A stretch of 64,000 nt of DNA from a phage (GCA_020619395.1 GCA_020619395.1_4860.1); one strand, 5' to 3'. Positions 1,516 through 56,089 are shown, numbered from the stretch's first letter. The notes: a model not told the origin generated them from the letters alone. Numbers and translations are program-made.

Positions 1516-2793
1516 TTAAGCTTTAGACTTTTCGTACGCGCCAATACCAGCGCCGATGTAGCCGTTCAGGCCGCTAATAACAGTGTTACCAACGTGAGCC
1601 ACAGCACGGTTCAGAGTCTGGTAGTTACGCACAGCCTGGTCAGCTGCAGTACGTGCATTACGCAGCGCTTCCCACTCACCTTCGTCGTTGGATTTTTTCA
1701 GAGCGGCAGCAGCTTTGGCAGCAGCCTCTTCCAGTTTCTCAACGTCAGCGTCGTAGCTGCGGAAGTCTTGCAGGACTTTCTCGAAACCTTTACCGATAAC
1801 GTCCAGGGCAGACGCAGCAGATGCCAGTGCAGAAATAGCCGGAGTAGCGATTTCTTTCGTTTCAGAAACGTCACCCGTCGACAGGAAGGCCACTGCGGTG
1901 AATTCCTGGCCGCCTGCCAGAGTTTTGCTGCCGGTCTGTACATAGGCGTTGCCTGGCAGTGCCAGAACTTTCTGACCGCCTTCGCCGTCTTCGAATTGCG
2001 GCAGTGCGCGCAGTTTCTTCGCAGCGGTACCAAACAGGGCAACGTCAACAGCGCCTTTAGCAGCGGTTGCGGTACCGTCTGAAGTTTTGGTGATCGCTAC
2101 AGCAGAGTCAGCCGCCTGAGAGGACAGCTTGTTGATGGCATCTTTCGCTTTACCGCCGGTCAGCTCTTTCGCGATAGCGATAGAGTTGGCCACATCGAAT
2201 TCACCTTCGATAGACAGTTTGCTAATAAAGCCACCAGAAATGTTTTCTTTCTTCTGTTTGCCGAGCTTACGCAGCATCTCCTGGTAAGCTTTCGCACGTT
2301 TCTGCGCGGACTTACCAACGTTGATGTACTTCAGTTTCAGCTCTTTCGCTTTCGCGATAACTGCTTTACACAGTTCAACGAAGCGTTCGAACAGATCTTT
2401 CAGGGTTTCTTTCCAGCCTTCCTGAGCTGCTTTGGTCATGCCACGGCCACGGCGATAAGATTCGCGCGCCAGTTTGGTACGATCGATAGCCCAACGTTTA
2501 CGGATAGATTCCTGCGCCACTTCGGTGTGAGCGATGGCTTCTTCAGGCATCTCTTCACCGTTTTCGATTTTTTCGTCAGCAGCGTCGATAGCAGCTTCGG
2601 TACGCTCGGTATCAGCAGCCAGAGTTTCCTGGTCGCCATCGAGCTGTTCCAGCTGACCGTCGATAGACGCAACTTCTGCCAGCTGGACGTCGATGTTCTC
2701 TTCTGCCGGTTCAACGTTGCTCAGACCGTCGATTACGTCGCCGGTAGCTTCAACGGACTCGCGGGCGAGTTTACTTTTTACAAAGTTTGCCAT
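1516..2793 (-). CDS. tandem paralog B of 179..1438; candidate virion internal protein
   Basis: 425-aa ORF with the same conserved N-terminal 15 residues, central blocks and C-terminal GAYEKSK motif as paralog A. Confidence 0.6.
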   Translation of the reverse strand: MANFVKSKLARESVEATGDVIDGLSNVEPAEENIDVQLAEVASIDGQLEQLDGDQETLAADTERTEAAIDAADEKIENGEEMPEEAIAHTEVAQESIRKRWAIDRTKLARESYRRGRGMTKAAQEGWKETLKDLFERFVELCKAVIAKAKELKLKYINVGKSAQKRAKAYQEMLRKLGKQKKENISGGFISKLSIEGEFDVANSIAIAKELTGGKAKDAINKLSSQAADSAVAITKTSDGTATAAKGAVDVALFGTAAKKLRALPQFEDGEGGQKVLALPGNAYVQTGSKTLAGGQEFTAVAFLSTGDVSETKEIATPAISALASAASALDVIGKGFEKVLQDFRSYDADVEKLEEAAAKAAAALKKSNDEGEWEALRNARTAADQAVRNYQTLNRAVAHVGNTVISGLNGYIGAGIGAYEKSKA

Positions 2794-2849: not shown

Positions 2850-3407
2850 TTAGGGACGTGCGATTTTTAAAAACACTGCTAACGACGAGATCATATCGGA
2901 TAACCCGTTCGGACGTGTCAACCAACGTGCCAGCAGTTCGTGGTCTGCATAAGATAATAGACGCCGGTCAGGCGTGTACGTCTGATGCGCAGTTCCCATA
3001 CGGCGAACTTGCCCACTACGACCGTAAGCCGCAGCAAGAAGTCGTGAGCCCAGGGAACCGGTTCGCTCTACTTGCTTAGTAGAGTGGATATCGTTCATGT
3101 ACGATACCAGAAGAACGGACCACTGTCCTGTTGACACTGTACGGCGTTTACCGTCAAGTATGAACGATGCAGATTCGTTATAAAACGTATTAAACGTAAA
3201 ACCGACCTGCGGATATTCGTCATATAATACTTGTTGGACAGAGTCAGCGCCCATCATGCGGAAATACGGCAGCACAACGGCTGCAGCTTCCAGGGTTTCA
3301 TGTATCAGTTCGTCGTCATGAACCAGCACGGGGTTTTGGGTCAGTTTCGCCATGTAGTTTTTAATCAACTTCTCGGCGAGGTTAAAATTCTGGTCATTGT
3401 CAAACAT
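2850..3407 (-). CDS. hypothetical protein
   Basis: 185-aa ORF in the minus-strand gene block; no motif recognised. Confidence 0.55.
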   Translation of the reverse strand: MFDNDQNFNLAEKLIKNYMAKLTQNPVLVHDDELIHETLEAAAVVLPYFRMMGADSVQQVLYDEYPQVGFTFNTFYNESASFILDGKRRTVSTGQWSVLLVSYMNDIHSTKQVERTGSLGSRLLAAAYGRSGQVRRMGTAHQTYTPDRRLLSYADHELLARWLTRPNGLSDMISSLAVFLKIARP

Positions 3408-3430
3408 GAGACTCTCCTGATAATACGGCC

Positions 3431-4363
3431 TTAAACCAGACCGTATTTTTTCTCCAGACGTTCACGTTTGTACTTGAGTTCCATCAAGCGCTTTTCGTGT
3501 GCTTCGATGAGTTTCTCAATGTGCACGTCCCCTTCACCGGCAGCCTGTTGTTTCTTGTACAACAGAATACGCAGCTCAGTCGCTTTCGCGGCTTCCACGC
3601 ACTCGTCATAACGATCCATTTGCCATTCTGCAATATTCAGACGCACGCGGTAGACAATTGACAGCGGGAACGGAACGGAGGACATACCCAGTGGATCAGT
3701 GGTGTTCGAACCGAACTGCTGAACCAATTGGCTATATGTCTCTTCGTCAAACACCGCTTCAGGTATCTCAGCGTAGTCTGCTTTCAGTTTGGTAATGGGG
3801 GTTGCCAGGACGCGCACCGCAATACAGAAAGACGTCTTACGGGTTTGCAGATACTGAAGGTCTTTCGGACCGATTCCCTTCACTGCAATGTTCGAGTCTT
3901 GTACAGCGGCAATCTCTTCGGCCGTGATGTAGTTAATCAGGGTGCTAGCGTAACCGACGAAGAATTCGATCATATCCAGCAACTGCAACACGGTTTGTTT
4001 GTTGAACGTTAGAGATGAAGTCACCAACGTCTTCCCGATGTCGCGGTCGATACACTGCTCCAGGAAAGGTCGCAGCGCCTGTACGTTCTGCATAGACGCG
4101 ATGACGTACTCCAGCATACTTGCGTTACGTAACCCTTTAACTTCCAAACCGGAGCTATGCAGGTACTTAACGATTTCAGTAGAAAGGTCTGCAACAGGCT
4201 TCGCTTTAAATGGCTTACCCTGGACACTTCCCACCAGTTCCTGGAGGTTCTGGAACTGTGGCTCTAACGCAGCAATCGAGTCGCAGTTAGATGACAGTTG
4301 GTTTTTTAAGTTCGTGGCTTCGAAGCTCGGCAGCAACATCGCCAACATATTCGGAATCGGCAT
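3431..4363 (-). CDS. hypothetical protein
   Basis: ORF-track 3431..4408 trimmed to the internal Met (ATG at 4363) that has an upstream AAGGGGA Shine-Dalgarno-like tract and removes the overlap with 4374..5492. Confidence 0.5.
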   Translation of the reverse strand: MPIPNMLAMLLPSFEATNLKNQLSSNCDSIAALEPQFQNLQELVGSVQGKPFKAKPVADLSTEIVKYLHSSGLEVKGLRNASMLEYVIASMQNVQALRPFLEQCIDRDIGKTLVTSSLTFNKQTVLQLLDMIEFFVGYASTLINYITAEEIAAVQDSNIAVKGIGPKDLQYLQTRKTSFCIAVRVLATPITKLKADYAEIPEAVFDEETYSQLVQQFGSNTTDPLGMSSVPFPLSIVYRVRLNIAEWQMDRYDECVEAAKATELRILLYKKQQAAGEGDVHIEKLIEAHEKRLMELKYKRERLEKKYGLV

Positions 4364-4373
4364 TCTTTTCCCC

Positions 4374-5492
4374 TTACAGTACCGGATTCGCGCCGACGCG
4401 ATAGGCATCGATGATTTTGTTTACATCGCCGCTACCGGACTTCGCCTTGCTAAAGTCTGATTTGTCGAGTTCTTGAGACCCGGTCTGACCACGCGTATAA
4501 ATGGTTACACGGTTCCAGGTCTGGTCGACAACCACGTAGTAAACAGTCAGGGTGTCTTTGAACACACGCTGGCGGATATTGTAATCATCGAAGTCACCGC
4601 CCAGCTGAGCAGTCAGATCGTCGATAGTTTCTTGAGAAACCACCATAACCGAAGACGCGTTGTTGATGGATGGGCTCAGCGTCAGCAGGCCAGACAGCCA
4701 GTTGGCGTTTTTCTTTTCCATCATCTTACGGTAATAACCGGACTTATCACGGAAGCGGTTCTTACGGTATTCTTCAATGAGGTCATTACACAGCGCGATA
4801 TCTTTCGCGTAGCTGAGAGAACCGACCTTCGCACGCAGCACACGTTCCCAGAAGGTTTTGGTTTGATCGCTGAACGCAATGAGCGTTTTCATTTCGTCGG
4901 TCGGCAGAGACTTCACATCAAGACGCAGACGCATCGGCAGCTCGACTTTATTACCGTCACGTTCGAAGGTAACAGAGAACACTTTACCGTTGGACAGACC
5001 TTCTTGATCATGCAGGAGCTTCAGCGTGTTGTTCGGCAGCACAGAACCTGCGGACGATTCAGTCGCTACTTTGTTATCGGATTTCTGGCGACGGGATTCA
5101 CCGACCGCAAGCCCGATTTTATCGTATGACGGCAGCGTGTGACGGGAGGACTCGCCGATTGCGAAAGACGCTAAGCGAGAACCCGAACGTGCAGCCGCAT
5201 CGAGGGCATTACGACGGGTGCTAACCTGGTCAAGCGTACCAAGGATATCAACCTCAGGAACACCCACCAGAATTGAGATGGCGGTAAGTTGGTTGCCCGC
5301 GAGCAGGATTTGGATTTTCTCCAGAATACCTGGCAGGTAATCTAAGCCCAACAGACTTTGTTCAACCAGCGTGGTGTGCTCGTTGTACAGCACAGAGTTG
5401 AATTCTTCCGTCGATTCCGCCCGCTGGCGAAGCAGCATGGGAAACTTAGAAAGAAAGGAGACGAGCGATGTCTCAAATGTTTTTTCTGCCAT
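4374..5492 (-). CDS. hypothetical protein
   Basis: 372-aa ORF; divergent from the + strand gene at 5515 with only a 22-bp gap. Confidence 0.6.
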   Translation of the reverse strand: MAEKTFETSLVSFLSKFPMLLRQRAESTEEFNSVLYNEHTTLVEQSLLGLDYLPGILEKIQILLAGNQLTAISILVGVPEVDILGTLDQVSTRRNALDAAARSGSRLASFAIGESSRHTLPSYDKIGLAVGESRRQKSDNKVATESSAGSVLPNNTLKLLHDQEGLSNGKVFSVTFERDGNKVELPMRLRLDVKSLPTDEMKTLIAFSDQTKTFWERVLRAKVGSLSYAKDIALCNDLIEEYRKNRFRDKSGYYRKMMEKKNANWLSGLLTLSPSINNASSVMVVSQETIDDLTAQLGGDFDDYNIRQRVFKDTLTVYYVVVDQTWNRVTIYTRGQTGSQELDKSDFSKAKSGSGDVNKIIDAYRVGANPVL

Positions 5493-5514
5493 TTTTAACT
5501 AAACTCCGGAGTTA

Positions 5515-6777
5515 ATGATGAGTAACGAGACCGATAAGAACGATCCGGGGTATGACCCGAATACCGACTACGACAATTCGTATCAAAACCCGAATAATAT
5601 CGATGCAGTACCATCGGTCGCCGACTACTTTGACCGTCGACTGTCCGATGCGAAACCCACCACGGCGTACAACGTTAATGATGAGTTATCGGGTTGGAAT
5701 GACCGTATCCGTCTTACGTTAGGTTTGGGTCTGGCTGCGCAGCGTGTGACCAACCCCTACATGGGGTTCAACCATATGATGGCGTCGAACCCGACGCCTG
5801 TTAACCGTGAGTACGGTGGCCTAACCTTCATTACCCGCCCTGACTTCAACTTGTGCTTTGACAACATTGCCAACTCGCGCAAGATGTCGAACATGGCTTC
5901 TCAGCCGAAATCGTCACTCGACTATTCCATTCTGGCAGCGTTAGACCCAGATTTTGAATTGGGGTTCTCTGATTCACCGATGGAAGATGGGCGAAGAAAG
6001 AACCGTTTGGGCACGCCATTCATGAAGGACATTATGTTTGACAATCTTCAGGCATTCATACCATTGCTGAGTACGCAGATGCTGAGCCTCTCGGGGATGC
6101 CTGACCAGTCTGTCGATAACTGGATGTCTGAAGAAGGTTTAATGCGCGAACAGTGGGGTATGGTTGACTCCACACATGAAATCAATAACCAGTACAGTAT
6201 GTCGATGTCGCTGAACAACCCATACGGCAACCCTATCATGCGAATGATGGGCGTGTGGCTGGAGTATATGTCCGGCATTAAGATGGGTAAGTTCAAACCG
6301 AAGATGCGTAACTCCATCCAACGCCGCATTGACTACCAGTCGAGGATGTACGGGTTTAAATACGACGCGCTCGGAAACATCACTCGTTTCTGGACAGCGT
6401 GTGTTTGTTGGCCGATGAACGATAACGCCGGTCAAATGGCGAATGTCGATAACACCAAGCCTCAATTAAATGACGACACCACAATTAACCTCAACTGGCA
6501 ATGTATCGGGGCGCGCTTCGATGACCCATTGTACATGGAGATGTTCAACTTGACGGTGTCTATGTTTAACCCGGATATGATGCCGCAACCAGGGAGTGTT
6601 GCAGCGGGTAACTTTATCCCGATTGCTGAAGACCAGCTTGTGCCGATTGCACCACAGCTACTACCGCTGTTCAACTACTACGGCTATCCGCACATCGACT
6701 CCCTGCGTCGTAAACTGACCTGGTATGTTTATCAGGCAGATTACCAATTCATCCTTAAACGAGCGGGCTTACTGTAA
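5515..6777 (+). CDS. hypothetical protein
   Basis: 420-aa ORF; its stop overlaps the start of the next gene (TAATG at 6775-6779). Confidence 0.6.
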   Translation: MMSNETDKNDPGYDPNTDYDNSYQNPNNIDAVPSVADYFDRRLSDAKPTTAYNVNDELSGWNDRIRLTLGLGLAAQRVTNPYMGFNHMMASNPTPVNREYGGLTFITRPDFNLCFDNIANSRKMSNMASQPKSSLDYSILAALDPDFELGFSDSPMEDGRRKNRLGTPFMKDIMFDNLQAFIPLLSTQMLSLSGMPDQSVDNWMSEEGLMREQWGMVDSTHEINNQYSMSMSLNNPYGNPIMRMMGVWLEYMSGIKMGKFKPKMRNSIQRRIDYQSRMYGFKYDALGNITRFWTACVCWPMNDNAGQMANVDNTKPQLNDDTTINLNWQCIGARFDDPLYMEMFNLTVSMFNPDMMPQPGSVAAGNFIPIAEDQLVPIAPQLLPLFNYYGYPHIDSLRRKLTWYVYQADYQFILKRAGLL

Positions 6778-21479: not shown

Positions 21480-21863
21480 TTAACTTGCATCGTGTGGAAC
21501 AGTCACCCAATCGTGCCATTTTTCAGAGTAAAGACGATAAGCCATCTTTGGATTCTGATCGACGCTGCCGGCCGGGTTCTCATTCCACAACACGTACGTA
21601 TATAACTCGTACGACGAAGTGTTACGGATACTTGACGTGCGGGTGACGTAGTACGTCAACCCGCGTTGGTTAAGGAACAGGCCGCTGTAATGTTCAGTGA
21701 CCATGTAGTAGTGAAACGCCTGGTTGATAGTGGCGTCGGTGCAGAGTTTCTTAGCGACGTCTTCTACGCCGGGATACGCCTTTAGAATGTTTTCGAGAAA
21801 ACTTGCTAAAGTCATTCCGATGTAGGGTGGCAGCGGCTCTGCTGGACGCGGCGGAGTGAGCAT
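21480..21863 (-). CDS. small hypothetical ORF overlapping the 3' end of the helicase gene
   Basis: 127-aa ORF in another frame over 21751..21863; could be real or a shadow ORF. Confidence 0.25.
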   Translation of the reverse strand: MLTPPRPAEPLPPYIGMTLASFLENILKAYPGVEDVAKKLCTDATINQAFHYYMVTEHYSGLFLNQRGLTYYVTRTSSIRNTSSYELYTYVLWNENPAGSVDQNPKMAYRLYSEKWHDWVTVPHDAS

Positions 21864-24495
21864 GTGATTTCCTTACAACGTAGGGGGATGTCGCGATACG
21901 GAACGACAATACGACATCCTTGAGTGATTTCTGGCGGGCATTCAGGTAATTGCAATGCTTCGGTACGTTATACGCATGGAATAACCACACCGTTGGGTCT
22001 ATTTCACCCCACTCGTTGTGGAGAATCTTACGTGGACGACCGGCCATCTGTTCGTTCAGTTGCTGGTCTTCTACCGGGGTTGAGATGTACATGTGCACCA
22101 ACCCAGGTTTATCGACCGCAGTCCCCGCTTTCCCCGGTGTGGAGATAGAGAAGTCTGCTTGGATAAAGTCGTCATACGAATCGCCTGCATTATATTTCGC
22201 CACCATGAGTGGATGGAATACAGGGTCACGCGATAACTTATCTTTCACATACTCGGTAAAGAACTCACACATTGCAACCGTAGCAAATAGCAGCAAACAC
22301 TTCTGGCCGGGTTGATACCGTTTAAGGAACGATTTCTCAACCACATCCCAGATCATGTTCGCGTATTCTAAATGCAAGTTCTCTTTAATCAGCTTCCCTT
22401 CGAAGAGTTTGTGGTTATACGGCGTCATCTTCGACGCCCACCACGCGAACTTCTTATCATCCAGTCGATAGTACAACGCTTTCACGTCAACCACCGGAAT
22501 GATTGGAATACTGATTCGGTACTCCATTGGGAAGCGTTCTAAATACCGCTCCGCGATAAAGGCTTTACTGCTACCCGGTTTAAGAGTTGCAGACATCTCT
22601 ATCGATGCCGGCGGGTTCAACATTATACCAGCCATGTAAACGAGGTGAAAATGCTCGTGCACCTCATCCATCGCCACCAGACCCACACCCAGAACATCAT
22701 AAAACGTATCCAGGTCCACAGGGTTAGTCGCAGCAGTGTTAATGTACTCCTTCAGGAAACGCTGTAGAGAGACCGTGGGGAGGATTATTACCTTAATACC
22801 GCGTCTATCTAGCTCTCCCGACTTACCCATCTCCAGCGCGTCGTAAATCGCCTGTACGCCTGTACAAACTAACACCTCGTCACGAAGTATACGAAGTCCT
22901 GTTTCATCATCACAGACGTCAAACAGCCATTTGGGAACGTATGACGGACGGTGAATCAATGCGGTACGGGTTCCCCGTTTAACCATCGACTTCATACAGG
23001 TCTTGGTGTTGTGCGTAACGATCCACTTGTCCACCACAAACAACGCATCGTCGTTCTCGACACGAATACACGTGGCAAGATCACGACCAATGGGTTCGAT
23101 AGACTTAACACGGAGTTTCAGTATATCGGTGTATTGTCCGTTATCACGACACAGTTCTTTCTTCCTTGGAAGATGGAACAGTTTCGATGGTGTTTTGTGG
23201 CGGATGGAGACGTTATAAGCCAAACGACCTTCACGACGTTCGCCGTTGTGTGTGAAGAACGGACGTTTCTCGCGTAGTGTTGCAATCCCTCCTAAAGACC
23301 GCACAAGTTCCTGAACACCTAAAGCCAATTCTTTACTGGTGGAACAGAAAGAAGGCGTACCACCATCCTTATCCACAGTACCGTCAGTATCCATCAAGCC
23401 ACGCAACAACTCCCACCGTTGTTCGATGGACGTTTCGAAGTAATCTCCAGGTATGAACTTTTCCCAAGACCTGCAGCCAATTAACCCTAACCGCTCAAGC
23501 TCTCTGCGGACAAGGTTAACACCGCCGGGACAAGAGATGCACTTCGTTATCCCATCGCTGTACGATGAATCATGGATTGCATGTCCAGCGGGCATGACCT
23601 CAGCAACACGGTCACGAATCTCCACATCGCCTTTGGTGTATAAAACACCAGGCATCGATAGGGAGCCATCACCCAAGAGGATACCGAGTAAATACGGATG
23701 AATGACAAAATCCTTAGCTGGCTTTTCCTCTGGTTCTGGTAATGGGATGTATACCCGTGGATTAGGCATCGAAATTAAACGTTTCATCTCTAGGGTATCA
23801 CGTACACCCCAGCGACGATTCTCGGTGGTATTAACGTAGTAGCTTTGCCACAAGTGCTCGCCACATACGTCAACACTCCTACCATCCCAAAACGTCACCT
23901 GATACAGGTCAACCACACCCTGTGGGAACACTCCAGAGACCATTGCTGGTTTTCCGTCACGCCCCGTAACGTAATCACCTAGCTGTATATCCTCAATGTT
24001 CTTCCAACCACCCGGTACACGCACACGCGTACCATGCGCGAGAGCTTTTCCTCTTCCTGTTTGTATCGCGAAAACCGTTTGTGAGCGCGATGGATCTGTT
24101 GCGGCGGCTACGACTTCATTCTGATAATAGAAACGCGACTCTGGGTCTGTCTCTTCCATCTTGAATCCGTAATTATCAAACGTGCACTTATAAGGTGTTC
24201 CTCGTACAGGACGGTGCTCTGTTAGCTTGTACTGAAAAGCGTATTCAATTGCTGCTCGTTGGAGGATATGTTTAATCTTCTCAGCGAACACTTTATGGAA
24301 AATGAACGTCCTTAAAGACGGAATGTGGGCGTAGTACGCGTCACCGCGTTCCGTGGTTATTCGTCCATGTTGCTTGCCCATCTTTGGGGCGTGCATATTC
24401 TCTTCGGCCCACGCGAGTATGGCCCTTTCAGCCTGGCGGATAGGGACTTCAACCCGTACCCCCATACTCGTGTAAGTCATTTGAATTTCTACCAT
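21751..24495 (-). CDS. SF2 DExH-box helicase, intein-containing precursor
   Basis: Walker A is split as ...AIQTGRGK / TKTC... by the intein; downstream DEVH (motif II), MSATL (motif III) and QMAGRPRK (motif VI-like). Start set at ATG 24495 because the upstream gene's terminator (24512-24538) lies between it and the ORF-track start 24552. Confidence 0.65.
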   Translation of the reverse strand: MVEIQMTYTSMGVRVEVPIRQAERAILAWAEENMHAPKMGKQHGRITTERGDAYYAHIPSLRTFIFHKVFAEKIKHILQRAAIEYAFQYKLTEHRPVRGTPYKCTFDNYGFKMEETDPESRFYYQNEVVAAATDPSRSQTVFAIQTGRGKALAHGTRVRVPGGWKNIEDIQLGDYVTGRDGKPAMVSGVFPQGVVDLYQVTFWDGRSVDVCGEHLWQSYYVNTTENRRWGVRDTLEMKRLISMPNPRVYIPLPEPEEKPAKDFVIHPYLLGILLGDGSLSMPGVLYTKGDVEIRDRVAEVMPAGHAIHDSSYSDGITKCISCPGGVNLVRRELERLGLIGCRSWEKFIPGDYFETSIEQRWELLRGLMDTDGTVDKDGGTPSFCSTSKELALGVQELVRSLGGIATLREKRPFFTHNGERREGRLAYNVSIRHKTPSKLFHLPRKKELCRDNGQYTDILKLRVKSIEPIGRDLATCIRVENDDALFVVDKWIVTHNTKTCMKSMVKRGTRTALIHRPSYVPKWLFDVCDDETGLRILRDEVLVCTGVQAIYDALEMGKSGELDRRGIKVIILPTVSLQRFLKEYINTAATNPVDLDTFYDVLGVGLVAMDEVHEHFHLVYMAGIMLNPPASIEMSATLKPGSSKAFIAERYLERFPMEYRISIPIIPVVDVKALYYRLDDKKFAWWASKMTPYNHKLFEGKLIKENLHLEYANMIWDVVEKSFLKRYQPGQKCLLLFATVAMCEFFTEYVKDKLSRDPVFHPLMVAKYNAGDSYDDFIQADFSISTPGKAGTAVDKPGLVHMYISTPVEDQQLNEQMAGRPRKILHNEWGEIDPTVWLFHAYNVPKHCNYLNARQKSLKDVVLSFRIATSPYVVRKSHAHSAASSRAAATLHRNDFSKFSRKHSKGVSRRRRRR
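23008..24045 (-). mobile_element. intein (346 aa, class-3-like, with LAGLIDADG homing-endonuclease domain) in the helicase P-loop
   Basis: Block A ALAHGTRVRV starting with Ala (codon gct, - strand, 24043-24045); block B ...GEHLW; LAGLIDADG-like LLGILLGDGS and LLRGLMDTDGTV; block F DLATCIRV; block G WIVTHN followed by +1 Thr; excision restores TGRGKT. Confidence 0.7.
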
Positions 24496-24511
24496 GCTGC
24501 CCCTCTTCGCA

Positions 24512-24538
24512 CAAAAAAAGAGGGGCGCAAGGCCCCTC
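24512..24538 (-). terminator. rho-independent terminator after CDS 24542..26647
   Basis: Hairpin 24520-24538 (gaggggc / gcaa / ggcccctc) with + strand A-run 24512-24519. Confidence 0.55.
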
Positions 24539-24541
24539 GGT

Positions 24542-26647
24542 TTACAACTCAATTACCACAGCGGCTCCTAGGTCATCGTACAACGATGCCGGGATTTTGT
24601 ACTCGGTATAAAAACCAACGCGATCGATATTCCCCTGCTGTCCTTCAAACAACAACATCGGAATTGCCGAGCGCAAACTAATGAGCGTGTTGTGATCGAC
24701 AAACCGTTTCCCGGTGGCATTAGTAGAATCCTCACTGTCAAATCCTACTGCCGGGAACGGATTGGTTGGTGACTCTACACGAGATATCGCCAACATAATC
24801 GCAATGTGCGTCATCGGTATACCGCTCAGCTTACGCTGGATGTACTTAAACGTATCCATCAACGCATAAGTACACTGTTTCTCTGTAGCACCACCCATTT
24901 CAACCAACGTTACCGGTTTCACACGACCTTGTTTCTTGTTCAACTTCACAGTCGAGGCTGTGTTGATGATTTCCACAATGTCTTCGTTCTTATCGGCTGC
25001 GATTGAACGTAGCTTGGTTTCTAACCCTGCCACGAATTCTGCCATCGATTCAGAACGGTTGGTGTAGACCAGTACCGGGTGTTTCGGGTTCCATCCTTTC
25101 AAAGGAATCTGAACCGTCTTCTTCTCGATACGAATGTTCGCACGTTGTTTCAAGAAGTAATGCAAGAACGGTTTAGAGAAGTTCCCACAAACACCCATTC
25201 GCACATCGATAGAATCTGCAGCGATGATTTGCCCATCTTCTAAACGACGCTGGAATGTCAAGTCGGTGATTTCCGGCAATGCTGTTTCATCGATTGCATC
25301 GAGATCTTCATGATACGCAATCTGGCTCAGCTCCGAATAAACTTTGTCGGTAACGACCAACTCGTATTCTGACCAATTACCACGCTGTGGTTTTGGTAGC
25401 AAGCACAACCCTTTCAGAGAGTTATGTTTGTATTCGGTCATGTACTCACGCATTCTCGGCGTGAGTACCAGGTTGAGCAGATAACGCAAGAAGTCAAGGT
25501 GCTTGGTAGAGAGAATTCCCTGTGTACCCTTTTCCGAGATGGACGTGGACGCCAGGTGACCTGGTGACGTACCTTCAGAGAGGTTATAAATCAAATCCCC
25601 CATACAGGTCGCACAGATGGACTGATTCGCCATCTCTTTACAGGTCATGGCACTACGGAAGACCAGCGGTTTGCCAACCAGGTCTGCGTATCCGCCTTTC
25701 TCAAATCTCAACCACGGACCATTATCACCTTCTAAACGATAACGCATCCCCACCATCGCTTTATAGGCACGCTCATCCAGCTGCGTATCCTTAAACGTGT
25801 AGCGGTGTGCGTGAGTTGTACCGCAGTCGTCGTACGTGAAATACATCAGTACGTTTGCTGCCAACTGCAGTTTACGTGAGGCGTATTCTGCTTCGGCAAT
25901 CTTGTCAGTGTTGTACAAGTGGGAACGTGAAGTTGCACCGGATTCTTTCAAACGCGAAATAACCGAGTGCATTCCGGTAAAGAAGCCTTCCCACACCTGA
26001 TTGGTGTATACACGTGAGTCAATTTCTGACGTTTTACCACGCACGAAGGCTTGCAGTACCTGGTTCATCTTCACAGTACCGTCCAGTACCGACATCACGA
26101 CCGGGTTATACCGTAGCGCAGGGTCTTTGAAGATTTTCTCGATAAGCTTGTACGCTTCTTCAACCATATCCCGACCATCTTCATCGTAGCCAGTAGGATA
26201 TTGCACTTCCCACTGACGGATGAGTTCGAAGTTCGGATGGTCGTAGATCTCCATCATCGTATCAAAGTCGATTGTCGTACAATAGGACAGCAAGTTCTTC
26301 ACTGTCATGTTGAACGCATCGGCGTAGACATGTTGACTCAGGATATAACGCGTTTCAGCAAGGTCGACGCCTGCTTTACGGGCCAGTACCGCTGCTTCCG
26401 ACATAAAGTCCAGATGCAGGTCATCTGTTGCTACCTGACCTGGACGATACGCCATGGTCGATGGAGTGGGCACCTGCGGATACAGACGCGACACACCCCA
26501 ATACGGCCAGCTGAGTTTGATGTGGCGACTAGACATTTCCAACGACTTACCATCGTCGAATGTCACGTAATAACGCCCGCGTAGTTTCCACACCTGATCA
26601 GAGTTAAGCATACGCAAATCACGTACGTGTACAGAACGACCCGCCAT
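24542..26647 (-). CDS. multisubunit RNA polymerase beta-prime-like, C-terminal part (candidate)
   Basis: 701-aa ORF directly downstream of the beta-like gene; SEKGTQGILSTKH resembles the beta-prime trigger-loop motif E-P-GTQ-L-T-M-R-T-F-H (recalled); the rest is unassigned. Confidence 0.45.
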   Translation of the reverse strand: MAGRSVHVRDLRMLNSDQVWKLRGRYYVTFDDGKSLEMSSRHIKLSWPYWGVSRLYPQVPTPSTMAYRPGQVATDDLHLDFMSEAAVLARKAGVDLAETRYILSQHVYADAFNMTVKNLLSYCTTIDFDTMMEIYDHPNFELIRQWEVQYPTGYDEDGRDMVEEAYKLIEKIFKDPALRYNPVVMSVLDGTVKMNQVLQAFVRGKTSEIDSRVYTNQVWEGFFTGMHSVISRLKESGATSRSHLYNTDKIAEAEYASRKLQLAANVLMYFTYDDCGTTHAHRYTFKDTQLDERAYKAMVGMRYRLEGDNGPWLRFEKGGYADLVGKPLVFRSAMTCKEMANQSICATCMGDLIYNLSEGTSPGHLASTSISEKGTQGILSTKHLDFLRYLLNLVLTPRMREYMTEYKHNSLKGLCLLPKPQRGNWSEYELVVTDKVYSELSQIAYHEDLDAIDETALPEITDLTFQRRLEDGQIIAADSIDVRMGVCGNFSKPFLHYFLKQRANIRIEKKTVQIPLKGWNPKHPVLVYTNRSESMAEFVAGLETKLRSIAADKNEDIVEIINTASTVKLNKKQGRVKPVTLVEMGGATEKQCTYALMDTFKYIQRKLSGIPMTHIAIMLAISRVESPTNPFPAVGFDSEDSTNATGKRFVDHNTLISLRSAIPMLLFEGQQGNIDRVGFYTEYKIPASLYDDLGAAVVIEL

Positions 26648-28884
26648 TATTTATCCTCCCGAATTGGACGCACTAATTCAAAACCTTCACAGCGATGGAT
26701 GTTACGTATCATCCTGTCAATCTGCGAATCTCCCATTGGCAGTTTCTTACGATCGACCAGCACCCCCGGATTGGTTGGTGTTGGCGAGTTATACAGCCCC
26801 GTTACGATCGCACGGTGTACCGCAGGGTTATTAGCGCGGTCATGAGTTTCGGGGAAGTTGCCCGGACCAAAGCCGTCGGTAAGACGCTGCTCGGAAGGAC
26901 CACCCCACTTCAACCCTTTCAGGTTAATCGGATATGAACCACGTCCTTGGTTGGATGCATCAATACAACCCAAATAGTTCGTGTACATCGACGAGATACT
27001 GGAGAACTCACGACCGGTTTTATCCAGGCGCAGAGTCTCTACCATGCCGACGTAGAACTGGTTCTTCGTCCACTCTTTCTCACCCTGATAGTTAGTAATC
27101 AGTAGCTTAGACTTGCGTGGTGCATACTCGCCTAGAGCACGGCAGATTTCTACCTGGGTGGCATTCAATTCGTGGGGAAGCCAGATACGAATCGTGAAGT
27201 CGTAAATCTCTTTAAAGAGTTCCAGACGTGACTCAGTATCTGGGTGACTGGCATTGAGATAGAATGTCCAGCGTGGGTTATAGCGATCGATATAGTCCAT
27301 CAGGATTTCCCAGGCTTCATCAACCTGGTTGGCAGCAAGTAATGGTTTCAACCGCATCTTCAACTGCTCGGATGCAGCAGACCAATACATGTGGAACAGC
27401 GCAGCATAAGTCGAACGACGAATTACGGCGTTCATGGAACGAATGACATGCACACGTTCTCCGAACTCGTTAATCGGCATTTCTTCATCAGGCCGCACTG
27501 CACCCACGATACCTTTTGTACCTGAACGGTCGGTGATTTTCGATGAGACGGTAACTGGGATTGGATAACGTACCACGATGCGTATCGTGTAACTACCAAT
27601 TGGGTCCCAGAGACCACGCTGAACCGGCTGCGCCAGTTTGTTTAACACGTTCTTATCAGCAGAACGGTTATACTCGCCTTTGCGCATGGCTTCATCGTAT
27701 TCACGACCAATCTCTTCACGGAAGTCGTTATAGACTTCATACGTCTCAGAACAGAACGCCTTGTCAAGAATCTCAAACGCTTTCGGTGACCAGACAATAT
27801 TCTTGTCCTTGGACATCGCAAAATAGAACCGCACGATATCATTGTAAAAACGTTTCAAAGCGTTCGCGTAGTGATCTAACTCGCGTTTGTTCTCTTCGGT
27901 ACATGCGATATTGTTAACACCACGATCGCATTTGGTTTCGTCCCGCCATACCTGAATATCAACGACACGAGAACCAGTACGTTCCATCTTTTCAAAGTCG
28001 CCAGCCTGACGCGCTTTGTAATGCTCAGGGTCAGCATCAACATACTCACAACGGTCGAAGTGCGGAGAGATATGTTGTGTTTCACCTACGTGCGAGTCAA
28101 TGGCTGCCCATAGCTTATCGAAACGGCGCGCGGCAATAACCAACCCATCATCACGAATTGCCTGTCCTTTATTGGGCAGGTACTGTGGTCGACGAACGCC
28201 ATCAATACCCGTTGTCCCATACGTATCAAGCAGGTACTCGTCGTCGCGCAAGGTAAAGTCGATTGCACGCAAACCATAAGCGTGCATCGCTTTCGCTGCA
28301 GTTTCGGAGATGGTGTACGAGTCCTCGATAATGTCCGGGTGCGACATTGTCACAGTGTGCAGGTTGACCCCATCGACAAACTCACCGTCTTTCTGTGCCG
28401 GCAGTACGGTAAGCATTTCATCTTTTTCCAGGTGCTGCGTCTGCCCGCGCAGCAACGCCTGAAGTTTCCCAGTAGCCTCTTTCTTAGACGAGAAAATGTT
28501 ATCGTGGTTGGTGTAATACTTAATATCGATTACATCAATCATCACTTTGCGCTGGTTGGTTAAATCTGCGCGCGTGAAGAAGATAACATGCTGGAGCGGT
28601 TCGTGATCCCCTTCACGACCATAGCGTGCAAAAACAGCTGCACGAGTAACACCTTCTTTGGTTGTGTAACTGCACACGGTACCACTGTCTTCCACGATAT
28701 CGTTAAAACAATAATCGTGGTAGTTCACATCAGCGCCGGTAAAATGGATAGTCGGATCTGGATTGTCCAGTGGTACCGCCGACTTCATATGTCCACCCAC
28801 CATTGAGGCACGTGCCCCAGATACGCCAGTGATATTCACCTCACGGTCAGCAACGCTTGACATGAGTTCGACTGGTGTTTTCAT
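26647..28884 (-). CDS. multisubunit RNA polymerase beta-like subunit (C-terminal catalytic part)
   Basis: 745-aa ORF; ITDRSGTKGIVGAVRPDEEMPINEFGERVHVIRSMNAV lines up with the bacterial beta motif GDK-x-AGRHGNKGV-x(5-6)-EDMP-x(3-5)-G-x-x-VD-I-V-LNPLGV (recalled from E. coli RpoB). Confidence 0.7.
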   Translation of the reverse strand: MKTPVELMSSVADREVNITGVSGARASMVGGHMKSAVPLDNPDPTIHFTGADVNYHDYCFNDIVEDSGTVCSYTTKEGVTRAAVFARYGREGDHEPLQHVIFFTRADLTNQRKVMIDVIDIKYYTNHDNIFSSKKEATGKLQALLRGQTQHLEKDEMLTVLPAQKDGEFVDGVNLHTVTMSHPDIIEDSYTISETAAKAMHAYGLRAIDFTLRDDEYLLDTYGTTGIDGVRRPQYLPNKGQAIRDDGLVIAARRFDKLWAAIDSHVGETQHISPHFDRCEYVDADPEHYKARQAGDFEKMERTGSRVVDIQVWRDETKCDRGVNNIACTEENKRELDHYANALKRFYNDIVRFYFAMSKDKNIVWSPKAFEILDKAFCSETYEVYNDFREEIGREYDEAMRKGEYNRSADKNVLNKLAQPVQRGLWDPIGSYTIRIVVRYPIPVTVSSKITDRSGTKGIVGAVRPDEEMPINEFGERVHVIRSMNAVIRRSTYAALFHMYWSAASEQLKMRLKPLLAANQVDEAWEILMDYIDRYNPRWTFYLNASHPDTESRLELFKEIYDFTIRIWLPHELNATQVEICRALGEYAPRKSKLLITNYQGEKEWTKNQFYVGMVETLRLDKTGREFSSISSMYTNYLGCIDASNQGRGSYPINLKGLKWGGPSEQRLTDGFGPGNFPETHDRANNPAVHRAIVTGLYNSPTPTNPGVLVDRKKLPMGDSQIDRMIRNIHRCEGFELVRPIREDK

Positions 28885-54517: not shown

Positions 54518-54661
54518 AGCAAACGGACGGATTCGAACCGTCGAAATATCCGATTATGAGTCGGGTGTTAATTCCTCTAACTTCGCTGCTCTTGCTTTGA
54601 CCGGACTCGAACCGGCGACCTTCCTCGAAGAGGTTGCTCTACCTACCTGAGCTACAAAGCC
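54518..54661 (-). ncRNA. two tandem degenerate tRNA-like elements
   Basis: Element 1 (about 54518-54595): D-arm GTTA/TAAC, anticodon-like arm CCCGA-CTCATAA-TCGGA (CAU loop), T-arm GACGG-TTCGAAT-CCGTC, acceptor pairing imperfect. Element 2 (54593-54661): acceptor GGCTTTG/CAAAGC, D-arm GCTC/GAGC, T-arm GCCGG-TTCGAGT-CCGGT, but anticodon arm and variable region too short. Confidence 0.3.
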
Positions 54662-56013: not shown

Positions 56014-56089
56014 TGGCGGGGGCACGAGGTTTCGAACCTCGAACCTTCGGTTTTGGAGACCGGTGCGCTACCAATTGCGCCATACCCCC
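56014..56089 (-). tRNA. tRNA-Trp (anticodon CCA)
   Basis: Hand-folded 76-nt cloverleaf: acceptor GGGGGTA/TGCCCCC, U8, D-arm GCGC-AATTGGTA-GCGC, anticodon arm CCGGT-CTCCAAA-ACCGA (U33, CCA, A37), variable AGGTT, T-arm CGAGG-TTCGAAA-CCTCG, discriminator G, encoded CCA. Confidence 0.85.

Follow-up and report, generated by a model that had tools for sequence, protein, structure and literature searches.

Results

A 346-codon insert in the Walker A motif of a phage helicase gene

We analyzed a stretch of 64,000 nucleotides (the window) from an SPN3US-like phage (Seoulvirus; GCA_020619395.1). The subject of this study is a gene on its minus strand that encodes a superfamily 2 (SF2) helicase and whose Walker A motif, or P-loop, is interrupted by an in-frame insert with the hallmarks of an intein. 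The enclosing long open reading frame (ORF) extends over 21751..24552 and begins with TTG; an ATG at 24495, the one annotated in related phages and taken here as the start, gives a product of 914 amino acids (aa). The layout of the gene is as follows:

21751..24495, minus strand: helicase precursor gene, 914 aa, with N-extein, intein and C-extein in one frame; the start (24495) and the stop (21751-21753) agree with the coding sequence (CDS) of phages SPLA3, Lh1B, JN03 and EC001
24046..24495, minus strand: N-extein, 150 aa, with the Walker A residues ...IQTGRGK at its end; colinear with residues 1-150 of the intein-less helicase of phage SPFM19
23008..24045, minus strand: intein of 346 aa, ALAHG...VTHN, in which a LAGLIDADG endonuclease domain splits the Hint splicing domain, assigned from translation, presence/absence, AlphaFold2 (AF2) modelling and Foldseek
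21751..23007, minus strand: C-extein, 418 aa and stop, with the remaining SF2 helicase core (DEVH, SAT, QMAGRPR) and a disordered Arg-rich tail, assigned from motif positions, PHROG 16 and the AF2 fold

Translation of the minus strand reads through the insert in 346 codons without a stop (ALAHGTRVRVPGGW...DKWIVTHN), and the plus strand across 23008-24045 is full of stops. The flanking protein reads ...VFAIQTGRGK before the intein and TKTCMKSMVK... after it, so that the insert falls between the Lys and the Thr of Walker A. An original prediction, made from the sequence alone, had placed a 346-aa insert at these positions and proposed that its removal would restore the P-loop. In-frame translation confirms the former and adds the strand, which had not been given. 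The latter holds in silico: when the insert is taken out, GRGKT is regained and the virtual spliced product reads QTGRGKTK over the junction.

The host protein displays SF2 motifs I (GRGKT147), II (DEVH264), III (SAT289) and VI (QMAGRPR470, of the form QxxGRxR) on two RecA-like lobes. The extein matches PHROG 16 'DNA helicase' (1.5e-57). An AF2 model of the helicase, with a predicted local distance difference test (pLDDT) score of 85, has a fold closest to XPB/Ssl2 of TFIIH, followed by HsdR, Rad54/SNF2, RecQ and DEAD-box proteins. Because the Pfam matches of the spliced helicase (ResIII and DEAD) are both sub-threshold, and a search of PDB sequences with the extein returned nothing meaningful, the SF2 assignment relies on PHROG 16 together with the motifs and the fold seen in the AF2 model, all of which bear out the host type originally proposed. 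The SF2 motifs are invariant, and the helicase is conserved, in all relatives compared. Disorder is predicted for the last ~35 residues at the C-terminus (..SRRRRRR; pLDDT <50).

Presence and absence of the insert among near-identical genomes

A megablast search of phage genomes with the gene returned 40 records, most of them from Seoulvirus, the SPN3US-like jumbo phages that infect Salmonella and Escherichia coli. The whole gene was found in five of them: SPLA3, which is the closest record (99.3%), SPLA5c, Lh1B, JN03 and EC001. The other listed records show a match in two pieces that spans 1764 bp, that is, 2802 minus exactly 1038; some 30 near-identical phage genomes are without exactly these 1038 bp. 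Presence or absence of the 1038-bp segment is clean between genomes that are 97-99% identical.

The same picture is found at the protein level. The orthologous CDS of SPFM19 encodes 568 aa, and the window protein minus 346 residues is likewise 568 aa long and colinear with it. Only 14 residues differ between the virtual spliced product and the SPFM19 protein, 12 of them in the interval from 56 residues upstream to 2 residues downstream of the junction. The lengths of helicase orthologues are bimodal: around three quarters have 565-569 aa and are without the insert, and the rest have 907-942 aa with the insert at QTGRGK/..HN/TK (slashes mark the splice junctions). Comparison with intein-less homologues had been put forward as one way in which the original prediction could fail. 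The outcome is that the segment is not a conserved helicase domain, and that most orthologues do without it. The insertion is in frame and missing from orthologues, and the host sequence is continuous across the site.

None of the five phage records identifies the element as an intein. In SPLA3 and SPLA5c the gene (CDS 3001-5745) is labelled 'terminase large subunit', a label that we reject, as the extein matches only PHROG 16 'DNA helicase'. The intein alone matches intein-containing terminase PHROGs (phrog_19299, 2e-36), which explains how the label arose.

Splicing blocks and the class 3 signature

Conserved intein blocks were located in the insert:

24007..24045, minus strand: block A (ALAHGTRVRVPGG), with Ala1 (GCT), a non-nucleophile, at 24043-24045
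23848..23883, minus strand: block B (GRSVDVCGEHLW), with His64 (B:10) and Trp66 (B:12) in GEHLW, their codons lying within 23848-23856; Trp66 is the 'W' of the Trp-Cys-Thr (WCT) triad
23038..23082, minus strand: block F (DLATCIRVENDDALF), with Cys326 (F:4) at 23068-23070 in DLATCIRV, the predicted initiating nucleophile and branch point
23005..23028, minus strand: block G (KWIVTHN), with Thr344 (G:5), His345 and Asn346 (THN at 23008-23016), then Thr+1 of the C-extein (23005-23007)

Class 3 inteins are defined by a residue A:1 that is not a nucleophile, by Trp B:12, Cys F:4 and Thr G:5 and, usually, by Ser or Thr at position +1 (PMC5050341; PMC5222942). Besides the general traits of an intein (blocks A, B, F and G, His B:10, a C-terminal His-Asn and Thr+1), the insert shows this combination in full: residue 1 is not Cys, Ser or Thr, and Trp B:12, Cys F:4, Thr G:5 and Thr+1 are in place. 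Every residue on which the class 3 proposal had been based (Ala1, the Trp of EHLW, the Cys of DLATCIRV, the Thr-His-Asn end and Thr+1) was found and its coordinates were checked; the W-C-T signature is complete, conserved in relatives, and in register with those of the crystallized class 3 DnaB-1 intein of Mycobacterium smegmatis (Msm; 6bs8) and of the mycobacteriophage Bethlehem intein. Assignment to the other classes fails. With Ala1, the window allele has no Cys, Ser or Thr as class 1 initiating nucleophile. Class 2 combines Ala1 with Cys+1 and Ser G:6 in KlbA orthologues (PMC4031507), and the window intein resides in a helicase and shows Thr+1 with His G:6.

Conservation of the signature was examined in relatives of the insert. 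H64, W66, C326, T344, H345 and N346 are invariant in an alignment of 50 homologues. Among 100 database homologues outside the phage genus, with E-values down to 1e-72, nearly every complete relative has GK/A..., HLW, C-I-x-V and THN/T or S; their hosts are PhoH, DnaB, terminase, primase and other P-loop proteins. A tblastn search with the insert matched 694 phage records. NCBIfam matches are confined to the intein portions of intein-containing DnaB, RecA, GyrA and ribonucleotide reductase (RNR) models.

The predicted structure has the Hint fold. An AF2 model of the insert, built on 50 homologues, reached a pLDDT of 94.1 and a predicted template modelling score (pTM) of 0.92. In Foldseek, the best whole-chain match was PI-SceI (E 8.7e-17, template modelling (TM) score 0.73), and PI-SceI and archaeal VMA inteins matched with E-values of 1e-15 to 1e-17 and TM ~0.7. 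When the Hint part was searched by itself, the best matches were the class 3 inteins MchDnaB-1 and Msm DnaB-1 (target TM 0.78); further matches included DnaB, gp41-1 and Prp8 inteins, as well as I-DmoI on the endonuclease half. A sequence search of the PDB related the N-terminal Hint half to gp41-1, Msm DnaB-1 (6bs8) and M. chimaera DnaB-1, and the centre to PI-SceI. The top match in that search, 6riz, was discounted as a natural class 3 relative since its WCT triad is engineered (gp41-1 C1A/F65W/D107C). 6bs8, which starts with ALALDT, is the natural PDB intein that aligns over all the signature residues: Ala1, H-x-W, Cys F:4 and THN. Among natural inteins, class 3 members are thus the nearest in Hint structure and sequence, and WCT is seen in essentially all homologues. 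We regard it as practically certain that the insert is an intein with a class 3 signature and a LAGLIDADG domain, lodged in the P-loop of a helicase.

A two-motif LAGLIDADG endonuclease domain

The Hint domain is split by a domain with the following features:

23146..23730, minus strand: LAGLIDADG (DOD) homing endonuclease domain, approximately residues 106-300, recognized by Pfam and by PI-SceI and I-DmoI matches; its limits are approximate and come from the AF2 secondary structure
23665..23691, minus strand: LAGLIDADG motif 1, LLGILLGDG, residues 119-127, with catalytic Asp126; D126 is invariant in the 50-sequence alignment
23380..23406, minus strand: LAGLIDADG motif 2, LRGLMDTDG, residues 214-222, with catalytic Asp221; in the same alignment there is no variation at D219, T220 or G222, and D221 is kept at >=90%

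The fold of two-motif LAGLIDADG proteins is an alpha-beta-beta-alpha-beta-beta-alpha pseudo-dimer. The window intein has an acidic residue at position 8 of the motif twice and gives fold matches to PI-SceI and I-DmoI, as a monomeric enzyme of this type should. Pfam detects LAGLIDADG_3 over its cut-off (E 1.3e-10) as well as Hom_end (1.4e-4). Hence, the endonuclease domain that had been predicted from two LAGLIDADG-like motifs is supported by both catalytic Asp residues, by Pfam and by the PI-SceI fold match. Lys295, a conserved residue, is also kept in the window allele beside the two catalytic Asp.

The catalytic residues are less uniform among 33 allelic inteins, found at the same helicase site. 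The position of D126 is occupied by Asp in 21, by Asn in 10 and by a gap in 2, and D221 is kept in 30/33; two of the 33 inteins are shortened to ~260 aa. Asn at the first catalytic site and the existence of shortened forms suggest that, in some branches of the family, the endonuclease is decaying or occurs as a nickase variant. Because about one third of the allelic relatives have Asn at the first site, endonuclease activity is probably not universal in the family.

Allelic inteins differ in residue 1 and share the WCT triad

A search with the spliced helicase showed that 29-30 of 120 clusters have an intein at exactly QTGRGK/...HN/TK, with exteins that range from 99% down to 40% identity. In the 33 allelic inteins, residue 1 is Ala in 11, Cys in 9, Val in 6, Ser in 6 and Met in 1, and is often unlike that of the nearest neighbor. 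H64, W66, C326, I327, H345 and N346 are present in 33/33, and T344 in 31/33. Alleles with Ala1, Val1 or Met1 make up 18/33, and one of them (P0137) represents a cluster of 162 sequences. A triad that is fixed while residue 1 drifts is the pattern predicted if Cys F:4 is the initiating nucleophile. This is comparative support, not proof.

Variation at residue 1 extends to the closest relatives of the window intein. The window, SPLA3, SPLA5c and JN03 start with Ala-Leu (GCT CTC, window 24040-24045). Lh1B and EC001 start with Cys-Cys (TGC TGT, locus positions 5290-5295), and elsewhere differ from the window intein by K108M only. Both types are found in isolated, viable phages.

More distant alleles were also detected. 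In gp48 of Erwinia phage Kwan, the site holds an intein that is 57% identical and starts with Val1. Seoulvirus helicases have two further lineages at this site. The first is a Kwan-like 346-aa intein beginning with VCRWD, ~40% diverged in DNA and with identical flanks (ENA ERZ27235510, 3001-5745). The second is a mosaic allele in a Salmonella Derby assembly (GCA_011094165.1, contig AAPGIT010000170.1): compared with the window, its endonuclease part has 16-36 mismatches per 60 nt, and most of its Hint parts 0-8.

Relatives were also seen in other jumbo phage genes. The SNF2 helicase gp233 of PhiPA3 has one in its P-loop (AGTGK/AQPL..THN/TY) with 41% identity. Phage EL has four places that match the window intein; its ORF039, annotated as helicase, carries an intein relative (the relatives in PhiPA3 and EL are 41-42% identical), and the C-terminal part of ORF039 is similar to the window's RNA polymerase beta'-like protein.

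Diverged tracts at the insertion site

The flanks of the insertion were compared site by site in six intein-plus and four intein-minus genomes. Two tracts of intein-linked substitutions were found:

24046..24190, minus strand: N-extein co-conversion tract, with intein-linked substitutions at ~30% DNA divergence; elsewhere the gene is ~99% identical to intein-less alleles
22999..23007, minus strand: C-extein side, with intein-linked substitutions at 22999, 23001, 23002 and 23005, common to all six intein-plus genomes

Outside the intein, the window is ~99% identical to intein-less SPFM19. Mismatches rise to 21-28 per 100 bp right at the N-extein side of the insertion, and fall back within ~150-350 bp. 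All intein-plus genomes share a core of linked substitutions, which lie no more than 9 bp from the insertion on either side. Beyond that core, the N-extein tract ends at ~24190 in the window and at ~24202 in SPLA3, SPLA5c and JN03, and is <=~10 bp long in Lh1B and EC001, which gives at least three co-conversion endpoints. This tract variant (24046-24190, ..FKMEETDPESRFYYQNEVVAAATDPSRSQTV..) was seen next to inteins only, and beside two different lineages.

The wider flanks do not group the intein-plus genomes: SPLA3 is nearest SPFM19/1252, Lh1B is nearest 1252, and EC001 and JN03 are nearest SEGD1. Hence, the intein is found in at least three flank backgrounds, each nearest an intein-less genome, and the flanks themselves are mosaic. 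At least three intein lineages occupy one site in Seoulvirus helicases. In addition, intein and extein identity are decoupled: one cluster (P0141) has a 99% identical extein and a 62% identical intein, and in another (P0182) the values are 58% and 69%.

Taken together, tracts, backgrounds and lineages are the footprint that would be expected from repeated homing or gene conversion, to which plain recombination could contribute. We consider it probable that the intein is mobile or was so until recently; its spread among related phages of Salmonella and E. coli appears to continue. Comparison of the window and JN03 inteins revealed 22 synonymous and 7 non-synonymous differences, with a ratio of non-synonymous to synonymous substitution rates (dN/dS) of 0.09 (0.07 in the endonuclease and 0.11 in the N-terminal Hint part). 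The intein is under purifying selection.

Other features of the locus and the window

Immediately upstream of the helicase gene are two RNA polymerase beta/beta'-like genes (24542-26647 and 26647-28884, minus strand). The likeness of the helicase to XPB/Ssl2, the promoter-opening translocase of TFIIH, and its RNA polymerase neighbors may point to a function linked to transcription. An inverted repeat (CCCCTCTT-TTTTTGTGCG-AAGAGGGG) at 24496-24525 (minus strand) separates the helicase ATG from the RNA polymerase gene upstream; it could be a stem-loop or a terminator that overlaps the ribosome-binding site. At the other end, the last 113 nt of the helicase gene are shared with a 127-aa ORF (21480-21863, minus strand). 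The records of Lh1B, JN03 and EC001 list this ORF as a hypothetical protein, and those of SPLA3 and SPFM19 do not annotate it.

Adjacent paralogous genes for phiKZ-type internal head proteins are found at 179-1438 and 1516-2793 (minus strand; Pfam phiKZ_IP, 4.5e-57 and 3.3e-75). A candidate second intein at 476-838, suggested by a weak tblastn match of the endonuclease region (E 0.1), was rejected, since the ORF there encodes such a head protein; the match is due to chance, and the window holds no second intein. Rfam detected three tRNA-like genes on the minus strand, a tandem at 54518-54589 and 54592-54661 and a tRNA-Trp at 56017-56089. ARAGORN detected only the tRNA-Trp (region 56014-56089).

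Discussion

A splicing and homing scheme for the window intein

The scheme that we propose borrows its splicing part from experimentally studied class 3 inteins and applies it by homology. The 914-aa precursor would be translated with a broken P-loop. Because residue 1 is Ala, splicing would not start at the N-terminus of the intein. Cys326, positioned by His64, Trp66 and Thr344, would instead attack the Lys(-1)-Ala1 bond, and the N-extein would be loaded onto its thiol to form a block F branched thioester. The N-extein would then be moved to the side chain of Thr+1 as a block G branched ester, after which Asn346 would cyclize with the help of His345 and the intein would be freed. An O-to-N acyl shift would leave ...QTGRGKTKT... 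in an active helicase of 568 aa. We regard splicing via Cys326 as very likely.

Once excised, the intein may act as a monomeric two-motif LAGLIDADG endonuclease. During co-infection it would cut the empty allele (approximately ...CAGACAGGTCGTGGGAAG^ACGAAATCG...), with the cut predicted to fall within ~20 bp of the insertion point (...GGTCGTGGGAAG^ACGAAATCG...), and repair off the intein-plus genome would copy the intein together with flanks of variable length. We infer the splicing chemistry, the endonuclease activity and the target site from sequence and from comparison among relatives.

Does the intein splice, by which route, and is it mobile?

Several observations weigh against this scheme or parts of it. 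The Pfam Hint models remain below threshold (Hom_end_hint, 29.3 vs 32.1 bits), and the helicase is taken to be essential because it is conserved. Closely related Cys1 and Ser1 alleles might use a class 1 route, so the family may be mechanistically non-uniform. A donor for the long N-extein tract was sought among the 120 helicase clusters and was found in no intein-less helicase. Furthermore, one N-extein tract flanks two very different inteins (~40% diverged), and part of the tract pattern could reflect recombination between alleles and not endonuclease-driven homing. One may ask if the element is a dead or decaying intein that no longer splices, in which case the interrupted helicase would be non-functional or dispensable. 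Ala1 would indeed be fatal to a class 1 intein, and inactive class 3-like pseudo-inteins such as Arsp-FB24 Arth_1007 do exist (PMC3196547). However, Arth_1007 is without Cys F:4 and His B:10, and in the window intein H64, W66, C326, T344, H345, N346 and T+1 are all intact. A dN/dS of ~0.09 over the Hint and endonuclease parts, a conserved helicase with invariant SF2 motifs, and the fact that five independently isolated plaque-forming phages carry the insert also speak against decay, which we view as very improbable. A slightly better, yet still slim, chance is given to splicing by a class 1 route, or by a class 2 route in which Thr+1 attacks the N-terminal junction directly, or to Cys1 alleles being the functional ones and Ala1 alleles recent defective mutants. 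This possibility is raised by the 9/33 and 6/33 allelic inteins that begin with Cys and Ser, respectively, by the Cys1-Cys2 start of the near-identical inteins of Lh1B and EC001, and by the Ala start that is also typical of class 2 inteins (PMC4031507). Yet the class 1 route is impossible for the window allele because its residue 1 is Ala, and every class 2 intein known is a KlbA orthologue that has Cys+1 and Ser G:6, in contrast with Thr+1 and His G:6 here (PMC4031507). Ala1, Val1 or Met1 occur in more than half of the alleles, isolated viable phages and the 162-sequence cluster included. The WCT triad stays invariant while residue 1 drifts, as would be expected if the nucleophile is Cys F:4 and not residue 1.

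On mobility, plain homologous recombination is the main alternative: splicing would work, the endonuclease would be inactive or domesticated, and presence/absence and flank mosaicism would result from ordinary exchange between co-infecting Seoulvirus. The N-extein tract shared by two inteins that are ~40% diverged, the mosaic flanks of these phages, and the Asn that replaces the first catalytic Asp in about one third of the allelic inteins are all compatible with such a view. Against it, the window allele retains both catalytic Asp and Lys295, and the dN/dS of the domain is 0.07. Moreover, the diverged tracts start exactly at the insertion, fade outward and have differing endpoints, as expected of double-strand-break repair, and the site is sporadically occupied in helicases from 99% to 40% identity. 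We therefore hold an inactive endonuclease to be unlikely, if clearly less so than loss of splicing or a different splicing route, and prefer homing or gene conversion driven by an endonuclease as the explanation for the distribution of the intein.

A more speculative idea starts from the Ala1-Leu2/Cys1-Cys2 dimorphism of otherwise identical inteins and the repeated changes of residue 1 in the allelic family: residue 1 might decide whether such an intein splices by the class 1 or by the class 3 route. The family would then bridge two classes whose evolutionary link is contested, with the endonuclease serving as an inter-phage weapon besides; we consider this combination rather doubtful. Beyer and colleagues, in 2020, reportedly argued against a simple divergence of class 1 and class 3.

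Relation to known inteins

The closest parallels in architecture are the Bethlehem 'MP-Be DnaB' and TerL1-a P-loop inteins of mycobacteriophages (Tori et al. 2010; Kelley et al. 2016), in which, as in the window, the Hint domain is split by a two-motif LAGLIDADG domain and the intein has ~340-350 aa. Like the window intein, mycobacteriophage class 3 inteins combine the WCT triad with Thr+1 and lack a nucleophile at the N-terminus. The point between the invariant P-loop Lys and Ser/Thr, used in the window, has been described as the 'classic' insertion point (PMC5050341). The Bethlehem intein, the founding class 3 example (PMC3196547), aligns end to end with the window intein (E 1e-26, 28% identity), with H-x-W, Cys and THN/T in register. 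The differences are the host, an XPB-like SF2 helicase of a jumbo phage of Gram-negative bacteria and not an actinophage terminase or helicase, and the polymorphism of residue 1 (Ala, Cys, Val, Ser or Met) in the allelic family.

The class 3 intein of Deinococcus radiodurans Snf2, for which a block F branched intermediate has been shown experimentally (Brace et al. 2010, as cited in PMC3196547), is likened to ours by description: its host also belongs to the SF2 superfamily, although it is bacterial and of another SF2 subfamily. The DnaB-1 inteins of Msm and M. chimaera (6bs8, 6rix, 6riy) are the best natural Hint matches, with Ala1, His B:10, Trp B:12, Cys F:4 and Thr-His-Asn aligned. Unlike the window intein, they are mini-inteins without an endonuclease domain and reside in DnaB, the bacterial replicative superfamily 4 (SF4) helicase. 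PI-SceI, the yeast VMA1 intein, shares the two-domain layout of Hint and LAGLIDADG but is class 1 (Cys1, Cys+1), larger, endowed with an extra DNA-recognition region, and only 16% identical. Lastly, Kwan gp48 and ~29 metagenomic clusters have the orthologous helicase, the QTGRGK/../TK site and the WCT signature; their inteins are 42-69% identical to that of the window, and none is annotated as an intein.

The combination of class 3 signature and LAGLIDADG domain, the phage origin, the insertion between P-loop Lys and Thr, and helicase hosts are already established (PMC5050341, PMC5222942, PMC3196547, PMC4031507). No description of the window element was found in the literature on inteins in SPN3US/Seoulvirus or phiKZ-like helicases. 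Thus, the window intein is genuine but fairly ordinary, and is newly recognized as an element that had gone unannotated. Its recognition corrects the 'terminase large subunit' annotation in two phages.

Biological implications

Three features have some interest of their own: the Ala1/Cys1 dimorphism found in nature, a residue 1 that varies freely, and homing footprints that are well resolved in jumbo phages that can be cultivated. The locus is a compact natural system for work on the population dynamics of inteins, in Salmonella and E. coli jumbo phages amenable to cultivation. In turn, the Ala1/Cys1 pair permits one to ask whether, in a WCT intein, a nucleophile at the N-terminus is disregarded, tolerated or put to use, a question that bears on the origin of class 3.

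A role of the intein in inter-phage competition is plausible. If its endonuclease is active, the window intein would stand as an intein case beside the intron-endonuclease interference recently described between phiKZ-like phages. If this is true, an interfering endonuclease could reach its target DNA by riding inside a helicase precursor.

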